From: a virus
DNA: 15,775 nucleotides
Direction: 5' to 3' (one strand)
UHGV virus genome: UHGV-0129795
The notes under the pieces are model-generated. The model did no database searches and was not told the origin of the DNA. It saw nothing but the letters and a program-made list of their open reading frames with translations. Each line of letters starts with the position of its first letter. Positions within the stretch are counted from its first letter, which is position 1. A program made the position numbers and the translations under genes. Below are positions 5,109-13,533 of this stretch, one piece after another.

Positions 5109-5628
5109 TCAGCAACCCCGGTATCATTTCATCCAGCGCAGCTGCCTTGTTCATGGCCTTAATGATGTCCTTCTTGAGGAAATCAATATGTCGGTTCTCC
5201 AGCTCCGGGAAGCGCCGCTGAACCGACAGAGGTATTCCATCGAGAATGCTGGCGATTTCTCCGGCTACCCGCGACAGCACGAACGTGCAGAATGCGGTCT
5301 CCACCACTTCAGCGGACTCTTTTGCATTTTTTAATTCCTGAGCGTCAGCCTGAGCTCGCGTAAGTCGGTGTCGCTCATATTCAATCGTGCCAGGTTGAAG
5401 ATCGGACTCAGAAGCGATACGGAGATCTTCAACTTCCTTCCGCAACTTTTCATTTTCTATAGCTGCATCGCGCGCACTGTACCATTCGATTGCAGCAGCA
5501 GATTCAAAGAGAACCTCATTACCTTTGCCACCACCGCGGACAACCGGCATACCTTGCTCCTGCCAGTTCTGAATCGTTCGGACGCTTACCCCGAAAATTT
5601 CGGATAAGCGTTTTTTGTTAACCTCCAT
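5083..5628 (-). CDS. nu1: Terminase small subunit Nu1
   Basis: 181-aa ORF, the same length as lambda Nu1. MEVNKK..IFG.S.RTIQNWQEQGMPV.RGGGKGNEVL and the C-terminal ..[18 protein letters not shown] match lambda Nu1. First gene downstream of cos, as in lambda. Confidence 0.95.
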   Translation of the reverse strand: MEVNKKRLSEIFGVSVRTIQNWQEQGMPVVRGGGKGNEVLFESAAAIEWYSARDAAIENEKLRKEVEDLRIASESDLQPGTIEYERHRLTRAQADAQELKNAKESAEVVETAFCTFVLSRVAGEIASILDGIPLSVQRRFPELENRHIDFLKKDIIKAMNKAAALDEMIPGLLSEYIEQSG

Positions 5629-10402: not shown

Positions 10403-11185
10403 TTACCGCGTTATCTGCTTAAGCTGTTTTTCGGCCCAGGACTCTTCGATATCAAATTTCGTGATCAGCAGGTCGTAGAATGGCTTAACAGACTTTTTCC
10501 AGGTGTCCAGGCTAATGGCGTCAGTAATCTGGCATACAGCAGCATAGGCTTCAGTCGACGGAAGTCGTTCATACCCACGCCCTCCGCAGCGCTTACAGTC
10601 AGCCAGAACAGGAACGCCCTGTTTCTCAGTAAGAGCCTGGTTCACTGCCTTGCCGCGCCCATGGCAATCACTGCAAGAAGCACTAACCACACCAGAGCCA
10701 TTACACTTTTTGCATAGCACTTTGATGGATTCTTTGACCTTCACCATCCCGGACACGGTCATTTTCCCTTCTGGCTTACGGAATTTATTGGTAAACACGT
10801 CAGCCTCAATGAAGCCCTGACCGTCACAACAATCGCACTGCTTCACGCTGGCAGCGCTGCGGGAATAGTCCTCAAAAGCGAAGGTGGCCAACTGGTGCAT
10901 CACCTGAGGTTTAACCGCGGCACCGAGCTTACGCAGTGCGGCAACCTTGTCGCATTTTGTCATCGCGTACTCAGCCAGCAGACCGATCGCCCGATCCCGG
11001 TCGTTATTGCTTATGCCCATCTTGCCGAGGAAGGCGCTGTAACCCATTGCGGCGCGTTCCTGCGTCATGCCCATGGCAGCCATTATGTCGGTACCGGTCA
11101 GTGAATCGGAGGCGGTAGCGCGCGGAGAATCGCTAATCAGTGTGGATTTAGCGAAGTGGTATTTCACTGTGTTTTCAAGGTTCAT
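10403..11185 (-). CDS. Q: Late-gene antitermination protein Q
   Basis: 260-aa ORF immediately upstream of the lysis region and downstream of rusA, the canonical Q position. Cys-rich C-terminal half with several CxxC pairs (CDCCDGQG, CKKCNGSG, CSDCHGRG, CKRCGGRG) typical of Q-family zinc-binding antiterminators. Assignment is by synteny and motif, not alignment. Confidence 0.7.
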   Translation of the reverse strand: MNLENTVKYHFAKSTLISDSPRATASDSLTGTDIMAAMGMTQERAAMGYSAFLGKMGISNNDRDRAIGLLAEYAMTKCDKVAALRKLGAAVKPQVMHQLATFAFEDYSRSAASVKQCDCCDGQGFIEADVFTNKFRKPEGKMTVSGMVKVKESIKVLCKKCNGSGVVSASCSDCHGRGKAVNQALTEKQGVPVLADCKRCGGRGYERLPSTEAYAAVCQITDAISLDTWKKSVKPFYDLLITKFDIEESWAEKQLKQITR

Positions 11186-11318: not shown

Positions 11319-11681
11319 TCATACGGCCTCCAGCCCGGTGATTGTCAGTTCCAGCTTTCCACCTTTGGTAACGGGCATCTTCACAACGCGATAATCAACG
11401 ACCTGAGCATCGTCCAGCCAGAAACCTGCTTTGGTGAGTGCGTCAAAAGCGGCCTTTTGCAGATTATCCAGGTCACGGCGACGGCGATCCGGCATGTGGC
11501 ACTCAATGCGGATTTTCACAGGCATAGCCAGACCGATATCCAGCATTGCGTTTTTAATGATTCGGGCGACGTTATCGCGGTATGCCTGCCCTTCTGCGCT
11601 GATGTGCGTGCGCCCGCGATTATGGCGGTAGTAGCGGTTATTGCTCGGCGGCCAGGGCAATGTGATGTTGTAAGTATTCAC
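11319..11681 (-). CDS. rusA: Holliday-junction resolvase RusA
   Basis: Translation from a GTG start at 11681 gives (M)[112 protein letters not shown], near-identical to E. coli RusA (120 aa) as I recall it. The track ORF extends upstream only because there is no in-frame stop. Confidence 0.9.
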
Positions 11682-11970: not shown

Positions 11971-12180
11971 TCACCCCCACGCCTTGCTTTGCCATACCCG
12001 GCTCGGGCGAGGCGCGTTATCGCCTTCCGGCAATTGCGCGCTGACGGTCCAGGTGATGTTGTCGCGATTCAGGCTGCGCTCTGTCTTTACACCGCGCGCC
12101 CGGTATTTCTCCACCAGCTCGTCGGCCTGTTCGGTGGTGCATTCGTGATGGTGGAACCAGGAAAATTTCATCGCCATCAC
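11971..12180 (-). CDS. Hypothetical small protein (69 aa), nin-region
   Basis: Start is coupled to the upstream gene (ATGA overlap at 12177..12180), and its stop lies 2 nt before the ybcO-like ATG. No family recognised. Confidence 0.5.
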   Translation of the reverse strand: MMAMKFSWFHHHECTTEQADELVEKYRARGVKTERSLNRDNITWTVSAQLPEGDNAPRPSRVWQSKAWG

Positions 12181-12773
12181 CCCGCAAAGCTCATCAGCTG
12201 GGCGGCGGCGTTTTCTGCCTCTTCACAACTGCGAAATGATCGGGAGAGTATCCATCGCCACAGAACATCGAGCGCGGCTTTGTACAGCTGCTGGAACTCA
12301 GTTTCATCCATATTTGCGAATGAGATACTGCGGGGATGTTTGCGGAGGGTGCCGTCAGGCAGCTGAATGGCGTCGTAATGGCCGGACTCAATAGTGACCC
12401 ATGCACGATATGCATCGAATGACTTACAGGCGCAGATGCTACCAGTACGCTTATCGGCAATGCGGTCAAGGTATTGCTCAGCCGCATCCAGCAGTGCGCC
12501 TTCGTTACCACCATAGGAAGCCAGGAATTTAGCATAGCCGGTAACCAGCTTGCGTTCATTGGAGGAGATTGCCCCGCCAGTTGGTTCCCAGTATTCAAAA
12601 CCAAGATTCAGCAGAGCGAAAAAGCGGCGGTGAAACGCAGGATTGCGTACCTGTTTAAAGTCGGCCTCCAGCACGGCACCGAGCTTAATTTTTGATTGCA
12701 GTAATTCGCTGGTCTCCGGCGTGGCCGGGATCAGAATTCCTGAAGATTGCTTTATTAGTTGTAAGTGCGCCAT
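12177..12773 (-). CDS. Conserved lambdoid nin-region protein, DUF1367-like (family assignment tentative)
   Basis: 198-aa ORF, first gene after the terminator at 12864..12886. Resembles proteins I recall as DUF1367 from enterobacterial lambdoid prophages; not verified. Confidence 0.55.
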   Translation of the reverse strand: MAHLQLIKQSSGILIPATPETSELLQSKIKLGAVLEADFKQVRNPAFHRRFFALLNLGFEYWEPTGGAISSNERKLVTGYAKFLASYGGNEGALLDAAEQYLDRIADKRTGSICACKSFDAYRAWVTIESGHYDAIQLPDGTLRKHPRSISFANMDETEFQQLYKAALDVLWRWILSRSFRSCEEAENAAAQLMSFAG

Positions 12774-12863
12774 GATGTTCTTCTTGGCGCAGATGGTCGT
12801 CAGTTTCTCAGGCTGACAGGGATATTATGGCTTGGCATACAGGCAAAAGCAATTTAACGCCGA

Positions 12864-12886
12864 CAAAAAAAGCCTCCGAAGAGGCT
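12864..12886 (-). terminator. Rho-independent terminator (minus strand) separating the upstream operon from the nin/Q block
   Basis: Minus strand reads AGCCTCTTCGGAGGCTTTTTTTGTCGG: a 6-bp stem (AGCCTC/GAGGCT), a tetraloop, then a 7-T run. On the plus strand the same hairpin is followed by a weaker T-rich tract. Confidence 0.7.
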
Positions 12887-12905
12887 TGTATGTTATTGAT
12901 TATAT

Positions 12906-12919
12906 TGTGACATGTCACA
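12906..12919. repeat. Perfect 14-bp palindrome TGTGACATGTCACA overlapping the stop codon of the 112-aa gene
   Basis: Read directly from the sequence at 12906..12919; it is its own reverse complement. The stop codon of ORF 12915..13253 (TGA, minus strand) lies inside it. Confidence 0.9.
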
Positions 12920-13253
12920 CGACTAACTTCACATCATGCCAGCCACGCGTAACCCAGCATTGCGAATCACCGGCGCATGGACACGACTTAACTGGCGGCA
13001 CATCACCGCATTTACCGCAGCGGTTCGCACTGATTGACTTAATGCGACCACGAACTCGGGCATCATCCTGACGGATCAGTAACGCGATGTACTCGCTCAT
13101 TTCATACGGCGCTCGCCCCGGACGGCGTGATGCACAATTGCGCTCCAGCATATCCATTTCCTGCGTATCAAGTATGAGCTCAAATTTACGCCCACCAGCA
13201 GCGGCTTGCCGGGCGCGCTGGGCAGCTTTGCGTTCTGCTGCGGTCTTAGCCAT
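12915..13253 (-). CDS. Hypothetical protein (112 aa): putative ribbon-helix-helix-like N-terminus plus Cys-rich C-terminus
   Basis: N-terminus ..ERKAAQRARQAAAGGRKFELILDTQEMDMLERNCASRRPGRAPYEMSEYIALLIRQ fits a beta-strand/helix/helix pattern as in Arc/CopG-type DNA binders (pattern-level only). C-terminus carries CGKC..CPC..C. Overlaps the upstream gene by 8 nt. Confidence 0.55.
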   Translation of the reverse strand: MAKTAAERKAAQRARQAAAGGRKFELILDTQEMDMLERNCASRRPGRAPYEMSEYIALLIRQDDARVRGRIKSISANRCGKCGDVPPVKSCPCAGDSQCWVTRGWHDVKLVV

Positions 13254-13533
13254 TATCCGCCCCTTTTGGCTTGTGGATTCGAATAGTCATACCGCTTTCA
13301 GTGGTGATCACAATAGCTTCCCCTGGCTGGATATCCCCAAGGCGAAACGCATCGTAAAAGGAATCCAAAGCCAGCGACTTCTCATCCTTACGATTCAACC
13401 ACCGCCAGCCTTTGCGAAGTGCTATGCCGAAAATCCATTGCCCTGCCTTGTAAGCCATAAAAAACCAGATGAGCACCACCTGAAAGAAGACAATCCAGTC
13501 AATAATCGTATATTTCGCGAAAGCGCCCATCAC
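13246..13533 (-). CDS. Hypothetical small membrane protein (95 aa)
   Basis: Hydrophobic N-terminal 40 aa (IIDWIVFFQVVLIWFFMAYKAGQWIFGIAL) and a polar C-terminal domain. 4-nt overlap with the upstream gene and 8-nt overlap with the downstream gene (translational coupling). Confidence 0.55.
   Translation of the reverse strand: MMGAFAKYTIIDWIVFFQVVLIWFFMAYKAGQWIFGIALRKGWRWLNRKDEKSLALDSFYDAFRLGDIQPGEAIVITTESGMTIRIHKPKGADNG

Follow-up and report, generated by a model that had tools for sequence, protein, structure and literature searches.

A conserved 12-bp dyad recurs in temperate phages at the end of a small gene for a predicted ribbon-helix-helix protein

The window analysed here is the whole 15,775-nucleotide stretch of the virus genome UHGV-0129795. 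It is a lambdoid prophage segment, and the 481 bp surrounding the site that concerns us are 100% identical to two E. coli chromosomes. Every gene of this region lies on the - strand (Table 1). The 112-aa gene shares its transcription unit with the DUF4752 gene ahead of it, and the 8-nt overlap of the two (window 13246-13253) suggests translational coupling in a unit that ends at the site. The intrinsic terminator that follows occupies the place equivalent to that of lambda tR2, ahead of the gene in the NinB position. It is kept in the E. coli and Citrobacter relatives, and epsilon15-like phages have a different hairpin instead. Beyond it, the DUF1367 gene is followed by RusA, YbcO and then the Q-type antiterminator, whose expression depends on transcription getting past both site and terminator. 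The leader of the DUF1367 gene also contains an inverted repeat, GTCAG-N9-CTGAC (window 12799-12817; TGTCAG...CTGACA in relatives), 26-46 nt upstream of the start. In the alignment this repeat is kept in relatives irrespective of whether the next gene is DUF1367 or ninB.

Table 1. Features of the site region, with positions in the window.
Feature	Position	Strand	Basis
12-bp core GTGACATGTCAC, a case of GTGAC-N2-GTCAC	12907..12918	.	invariant in the five-relative alignment; exact in 74/80 IMG/VR relatives
112-aa gene, epsilon15 gp49 / N15 gp46 family (PHROG 536), candidate site binder	12915..13253	-	model: basic helix, ribbon-helix-helix, Cys-rich C-terminal domain
TGA stop of the 112-aa gene, core bases 2-4	12915..12917	-	sequence
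Intrinsic terminator, stem AAGCCTC-TTCG-GAGGCTT (12887-12870) plus T-run, 18 nt downstream of the site	12863..12887	-	sequence
DUF1367 gene, NinB position (PHROG 319), first gene of the nin/Q block downstream of site and terminator	12177..12773	-	
Q-type antiterminator gene, 1.7 kb downstream of the site	10403..11185	-	
DUF4752 gene, upstream of the site, same transcription unit as the 112-aa gene	13246..13533	-	8-nt overlap with the start of the 112-aa gene

Where the 112-aa gene ends, the window carries the 14-bp palindrome TGTGACATGTCACA (12906-12919). An earlier note on this DNA had described it as perfectly self-complementary and as overlapping the stop of the gene, and both points are borne out: the self-complementarity is exact and the TGA falls within the palindrome. 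The gap to the terminator hairpin, given there as 20 nt, comes to 18 nt from the position of the stem. As for the further copies that the note proposed to look for, the window holds only one TGTGACATGTCACA even when 3 mismatches are tolerated, and it is in other phages that the site is found in multiple copies. Perfect palindromes of at least 14 bp occur at a mean of 1.16 per Markov-1 randomised window, with one or more in 69% of randomisations. By the statistics of the window alone the palindrome is therefore unremarkable, about one being expected by chance, and it owes its significance to comparison with other genomes only. The functional unit is the 12-mer GTGAC-N2-GTCAC, which the note had overlooked together with its multiple copies, its matS half-sites and its occurrence in phages without the gene.

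How constant is this unit where the gene is retained? We aligned the locus with five annotated relatives, namely E. coli prophages about 90% identical, the Citrobacter phage Omnitron and an epsilon15-like Salmonella phage. The core is unchanged in all five, although they differ in their final codons, in the spacer and even in the terminator; it thus stands firm against the codon drift with which the earlier note had proposed to compare it. The outer T/A of the 14-mer (12906 and 12919) is unconserved among relatives. A larger sample from IMG/VR comprised 80 loci with relatives of the 112-aa protein at 76-100% protein identity, and 74 of these have the exact core at the stop codon. Two loci (L023 and L024) have an AG centre, GTGACAGGTCAC, and three (L010, L017 and L043) retain the site behind an extra small ORF; the exceptions are a 1-bp deletion in the centre, a lost site and a locus that stops at the gene. 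A palindrome that disappears where the gene is retained had been named in advance as a refuting result. The opposite is seen: of 79 relatives, about 77 have the core where the 112-aa gene stops, which also bears out the proposed tight linkage of the dyad to this adjacent gene.

Among the IMG/VR loci, what follows the site belongs to at least six sequence classes that are unrelated to one another. Two different terminators are represented, as are a promoter (TTGACT) with a perfect LexA box and the Shine-Dalgarno sequence and ATG of the next gene. The small ORF of the three loci above has about 65 codons (3337-3544 in L010 and L017, 1662-1869 in L043), lies between the family gene, which it overlaps by ATGA, and the site, and ends on the TGA of the site, which thus remains at the end of the transcription unit. 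In the LexA class, for example at L010:3545-3600, a TTGACT -35 hexamer and the perfect LexA box TACTGTTTATATATACAG begin 6 nt after the site; the same class is seen in L011, L017, L020, L023, L040, L041, L044, L049, L057 and L078. Its sequence marks it as an SOS-controlled promoter for the next gene, which is possibly an antirepressor gene as in SPC32H-type phages.

The site extends to distant subfamilies. Relatives at 32-55% protein identity retain GTGAC-N2-GTCAC or a near variant; only the most distant branch departs from invariant arms, and the two central bases differ from lineage to lineage. For example, the Pantoea phage AH07 has GTGACCTGTCAC, with a CT centre, at the stop of its homologue. 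In phiKO2 and 51 N15-like loci, GTGACTGGTCAC stands at the homologue's stop in every locus, with an additional copy inside repA, and 65 of 67 phiKO2-like sites have a TG centre. Sites of the Vibrio phage K303 have AC and CG centres. The most distant phage examined, the Aeromonas phage 14AhydR10PP (32% identity), carries three identical copies of the asymmetric GTGACCGGACAC (L334:251, 3032 and 29428). All three stand shortly before a Shine-Dalgarno sequence and ATG, and one precedes the family homologue by 25 nt. Each Aeromonas copy is followed by a GA(R)(R)GGTTAAAT-like sequence and then the ATG, which resembles the sequence GGAGGGTTAAAAATG that follows the phiKO2 site. Moreover, the placement of the stop codon within the site is found in epsilon15 gp49 and gp18, where the stop is the TGA of the site itself, in phiKO2 gp45, in AH07 gp31 and in the inserted small ORF of the three IMG/VR loci.

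Many of these genomes carry several copies. Exact cores occur at 2142, 19517 and 39612 in epsilon15, at 2324, 19727 and 39847 in VB_ST_E15, at 11500 and 32282 in TL-2011b, and at 5125, 7622 and 14944 in the Pectobacterium phage ZF40, a myovirus whose homologue has 62% protein identity; chance would give about 0.003 exact 12-mers per genome of such size. The closest carrier of the module, the OW1E2 prophage, has one copy in 49 kb. P2-like (Yersinia-type) phages carry arrays of two or three sites at a strict spacing of 32-33 bp, which corresponds to three helical turns. These arrays (L093:11675-11746 and most of L150-L208) are non-coding and lie between the moron region and the portal gene, away from the stop of the homologue. 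GTGAC-N2-GTCAC ranks top, by a wide margin, of 60 composition-matched inverted-repeat control motifs in all four locus groups. When spacers of 0-6 bp were allowed in about 1.9 Mb of phage loci, the spacer was 2 bp in 260 of 268 arm pairs and 3 bp in 2, counts that derive from related sequences and are not independent events. Lambda and P22, our negative controls, have neither a family member nor a site. Sequence comparison thus places the site in many unrelated temperate phages, nearly always at the end of one small gene of DNA-binding type.

Two phages depart from this pattern. A search of IMG/VR for the exact 14-mer, which gave many further contexts, led to BUCT708 (L330:2142 and 32255) and LMessi (L331:3472 and 7323), each with two exact GTGACATGTCAC sites. 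Neither tblastn nor a profile HMM found a member of the 112-aa family in either phage, and we found no ORF family that the two share and that lambda and P22 lack. Their sites therefore imply another reader, or a protein supplied in trans by another element: they are read either by a host protein, by a non-homologous phage protein or by a family protein from another element. BUCT708 is labelled a Stenotrophomonas phage, yet it has a DUF1367 gene like that of the E. coli window and resembles the IMG/VR contigs that we found.

The sites tend to lie at the ends of genes and operons. We grouped 313 distinct sites into 156 context classes, and a hairpin with a T-run follows within 30 nt downstream of the site in 27 of them, as against 6 that show only the opposite order. 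Random positions show a terminator downstream in about 1.6% of cases and the opposite arrangement in about 1.4%, so that a site just upstream of a terminator is about ten times commoner than for random positions. An open frame of at least 40 codons ends at the site in about 70% of classes, a figure that is inflated because the site itself supplies a TGA. At each of the three epsilon15 sites, reading along the gene that ends there, the stop codon comes first, then the site and then an intrinsic terminator. In the same genome (L089) the repressor operators that follow downstream of the sites at 39612, 2142 and 19517 lie at 12-27, 2931-2947 and 19895-19911, respectively. These operators, ATTACC-N5-GGTAAT, are those of the GenBank annotation, and each site closes a transcription unit; the late region thus looks divided into units with a repressor operator at the start and a site and terminator at the end.

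Other copies lie within genes. In three unrelated early proteins the site is translated as C-D-M-S; Q-like antiterminators have it as V-T-C-H, at either of two zinc-knuckle positions, and this suggests that selection acts on the DNA word wherever codons permit. The V-T-C-H sites (L331:3472 and L092:3419) belong to two Q variants and occupy differing positions of the Cys-rich motif; the Q gene of the window has no site. We also considered a link to packaging, since sites flank terS-terL in epsilon15-like phages and adjoin terS in K303. However, this placement is not general: in the window 7 kb separate the site from Nu1, and in ZF40 terL is far away.

The 112-aa protein is itself of a kind that could read such a dyad. 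An AF2 model built from a deep alignment reached a pLDDT of 90.9; we used it in place of a model built from close homologues only, which had a pLDDT of 67.5 and gave meaningless Foldseek matches. The protein models as an N-terminal basic helix, a ribbon-helix-helix (RHH) and a Cys-rich tail, and this C-terminal domain probably binds Zn. The model has the beta-alpha-alpha fold of the strand-dimerising RHH type, in agreement with the RHH-like product of the earlier description. R8, R13 and R15 are invariant across subfamilies, while the beta-strand is variable. The structural matches of the model include MatP, with a likeness at the level of the RHH fold only. At the sequence level, Pfam, NCBIfam and the PDB (by phmmer and by profile search) returned nothing, and we found no relevant literature on the motif, on the function of the protein (gp49, gp46) or on MatP with phage.

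What reads the site? Of the functions first suggested for the palindrome, the operator of a dimeric DNA-binding protein has turned out to be the best reading, given the conserved dyad, the gene linkage and the RHH model. The site appears to be a conserved 12-bp element of protein-binding type tied to an RHH-like family, well beyond a chance palindrome. From its conservation, linkage to the gene, multi-copy distribution and terminator placement, and from the predicted fold, we infer binding, a binder and an effect. We give about an even chance to the reading that the palindrome is a copy of a conserved cis-acting DNA site for a dimeric protein, likeliest the 112-aa product, with a role in transcription or DNA architecture. 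In this model a single dimer would occupy the dyad. Its invariant arginines, on the basic helix, would recognize the likewise invariant GTGAC arms, and the central 2 bp, which differ by lineage, would lie opposite the variable beta-ribbon. In the prophage the site has the last codon of the replication-side genes on one side and the tR2-like terminator on the other. Protein bound here would modulate the amount of transcription that enters the nin/Q block, whether as an obstacle to RNA polymerase or through a change in termination. Control of read-through into this block, which had also been suggested before, is plausible in that terminators repeatedly follow close on the site. The mechanism that we favor is a modulation of transcription where operons end, and architectural bridging in the style of MatP-matS is possibly the alternative.

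Some observations count against a cognate phage protein. The site lies at the 3' end of the gene without overlapping a promoter, which is atypical for RHH autoregulators, and the window and the OW1E2 prophage have a single copy each. Our confidence stops at an even chance mainly because of the sites of BUCT708 and LMessi, phages in which no family member was found. Two things nevertheless favor the phage protein as primary reader, namely the lineage-specific centres and the tight linkage of gene and site, which persists in subfamilies with only about 40% identity.

Host proteins are the obvious competitors for this role. MatP is possessed by Enterobacterales, Vibrionales and Aeromonadales, the very orders that host these phages, and a reader of this kind would at once accommodate the two phages that carry two exact sites each and have neither a family member nor an exclusive common ORF family. 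The half-sites GTGAC and GTCAC are, moreover, identical to those of matS, a 13-bp site with a 3-bp spacer and the consensus GTGACRNYGTCAC (PMC6907758, Table 2). MatP, or a factor of MatP/SlmA type, would then read a site that phages place at gene ends for their own localization or organization, and linkage to the 112-aa gene would be secondary. We consider this rather unlikely. The 2-bp spacer prevails in the arm pairs and 3-bp matS spacing is at chance level; the centre, and one arm in the Aeromonas phage, vary with the subfamily of the phage protein; the site keeps to the stop of the family gene in subfamilies of only about 40% identity; and lambda and P22 have no site. A different account starts from the unrelated classes of DNA downstream of the site, from the two copies that flank terS-terL in epsilon15-like phages and from the small ORF inserted between gene and site in L010, L017 and L043. 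On this account the element is a mosaic junction, serving as a conserved linker or as a nuclease or recombinase target in the exchange of phage modules. A length of 12 bp is too short for homologous exchange, however; copies within coding sequence (the CDMS and VTCH codons) and in phased arrays are not junctions; and boundaries at gene ends are expected in these phages regardless. No recombinase or nuclease gene accompanies the site. The recombination or cleavage site first suggested for the palindrome finds no positive evidence, and we regard a role in module exchange as improbable.

Could the element instead act in RNA, as a 3' UTR hairpin ahead of the terminator or as a translational operator beside the next ribosome-binding site? 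The site is transcribed in all cases, the order of site then terminator dominates among the context classes (27 versus 6), and in several lineages a start codon with its Shine-Dalgarno sequence follows the site by 8-19 nt. However, the arms are invariant and show no compensatory change in the stem, the 2-nt centre is too short for a loop, and the Aeromonas GTGACCGGACAC disrupts a pair without compensation. A hairpin of the palindrome is absent from the local minimum-free-energy fold (z-score -1.0), Rfam gave no match, and the helically phased 33-bp arrays indicate duplex DNA. These findings make an RNA element a poor prospect, somewhat poorer than the mosaic junction, and the evidence points to duplex DNA that would be read by a symmetric dimer rather than to an RNA hairpin. 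An antitermination signal of the nut / boxB type was rejected on related grounds: no covariation, no predicted hairpin, the broken Aeromonas pairing and no Rfam match. The least probable reading, to which we give hardly any credence, is that of a chance palindrome or merely a promoter -35 hexamer. Chance does account for one 14-bp palindrome in the window, and a consensus scan pairs GTGACA with TAACAT at 17-nt spacing. Conservation across unrelated phages rules chance out, however, and the -10-like TAACAT, with a TATAAT directly after the site, occurs in one downstream class only and varies there (TGTAAT, TGGAAT, TACAAT); a transcript from this promoter would also begin within the terminator stem.

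If the reading as the cognate site of a dimeric phage protein is true, a 12-bp word and a small orphan protein would form a regulatory or architectural module common to podo-, sipho- and myovirus-type prophages, P2-like phages and N15-like linear plasmid prophages. Such a module would give the widespread "hypothetical protein" of PHROG 536 a function and account for the recurrent arrangement of stop, site and terminator at operon ends. As the prophage site stands at the gate of the nin/Q block, it would therefore stand at the gate of lysis timing. A bolder version, which we put forward as speculation and hold to be doubtful, is a phage matS-like system of gamma-proteobacterial temperate phages, in which a protein with a basic helix, an RHH and a Zn tail reads dispersed sites at operon ends and gates terminators or bridges DNA. 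Passage through a terminator would then be decided by a DNA site, giving late or nin/Q expression a timing independent of Q and N, and phages with the site only would respond either to a host factor or to the protein made by another phage resident in the cell.

How does the element compare with known systems? The RHH repressors (Arc, Mnt, CopG, MetJ, the ParD/TacA antitoxins and AmrZ) share with it the predicted fold, the short dyad target and the gene adjoining the site. The short dyad or phased sub-sites of RHH operators have counterparts in the invariant 5-bp arms, the 2-bp centre and the 32-33 bp arrays, and phased multiple sites in some genomes suggest cooperative binding here as well. 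However, the operators of these repressors overlap the promoter that they regulate, usually their own, whereas the phage site shares bases with a stop codon and has a terminator after it. No promoter is conserved at the site; the LexA-controlled promoter that it abuts in one class of relatives is not general. Moreover, the phage protein adds the N-terminal basic helix and the C-terminal Cys-rich domain, and its 12-mer is common to many unrelated phage types.

In the partition cassettes of P1 (parB-parS) and F (sopB-sopC), the centromere lies just downstream of the gene for the binding protein. Our site is likewise directly 3' of the gene of its presumed binder, and further copies are dispersed over the genome, including that of the N15-like phiKO2, as are the SopB sites of N15 and phiKO2. 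However, the window has no gene for a partner ATPase next to the 112-aa gene, the majority of carriers integrate as prophages, and the annotated partition sites of phiKO2 have a different sequence, GTGCGACCACGGTCGCAC; on the basis of the missing ATPase gene and the differing sites we rejected a centromere of the ParB/SopB type. The site of SlmA, a TetR-type protein, has the consensus GTGAGTACTCAC; it is likewise a perfect palindrome of 12 bp, and its four outer bases on each side agree with ours (GTGA....TCAC). However, its central four bases are GTAC rather than CATG, and positions 5 and 8 of the phage motif are invariant C and G. A CRP site, whose half-sites the 14-mer was first seen to resemble, is not supported. 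The outer pentamers of the 14-mer, TGTGA and TCACA, do match TGTGA-N6-TCACA, but they are spaced by 4 rather than 6, their outer T/A is unconserved, and C5 and G8, which in a CRP site would belong to the spacer, are invariant, so that the conserved arm is GTGAC with a 2-bp centre.

The closest parallel is with MatP/matS. In addition to the identical 5-bp half-sites, both systems have few dispersed copies per replicon, and MatP is an RHH preceded by a basic helix, as in the model of the phage protein. However, the matS spacer is 3 bp where that of the phage site is 2 bp, the four-helix bundle and coiled coil of MatP are missing from the phage protein, which has the Cys-rich tail, and the phage sites cluster at gene ends beside terminators. 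The MatP Pfam families PF06303 and PF17414 gave no match to the 112-aa protein up to an E-value of 10, and hhalign of the family profile against E. coli MatP, which stood for the MatP side because its homologue search returned only near-identical E. coli sequences, gave a probability of 0.2. The two sites with a 3-bp spacer in the phage loci are consistent with chance. The 13-mer GTGACACCGTCAC, a perfect match to the matS consensus, occurs at L088:40885, within recT of the OW1E2 prophage, and at L095:6736 in K303. Because the spacer differs and the profile is unrelated, the element resembles a site of matS or RHH-operator type yet falls outside the MatP/matS family. The identity of the half-sites with those of matS nevertheless raises the question of whether phages copy, avoid or compete with the Ter-organizing system of their hosts.
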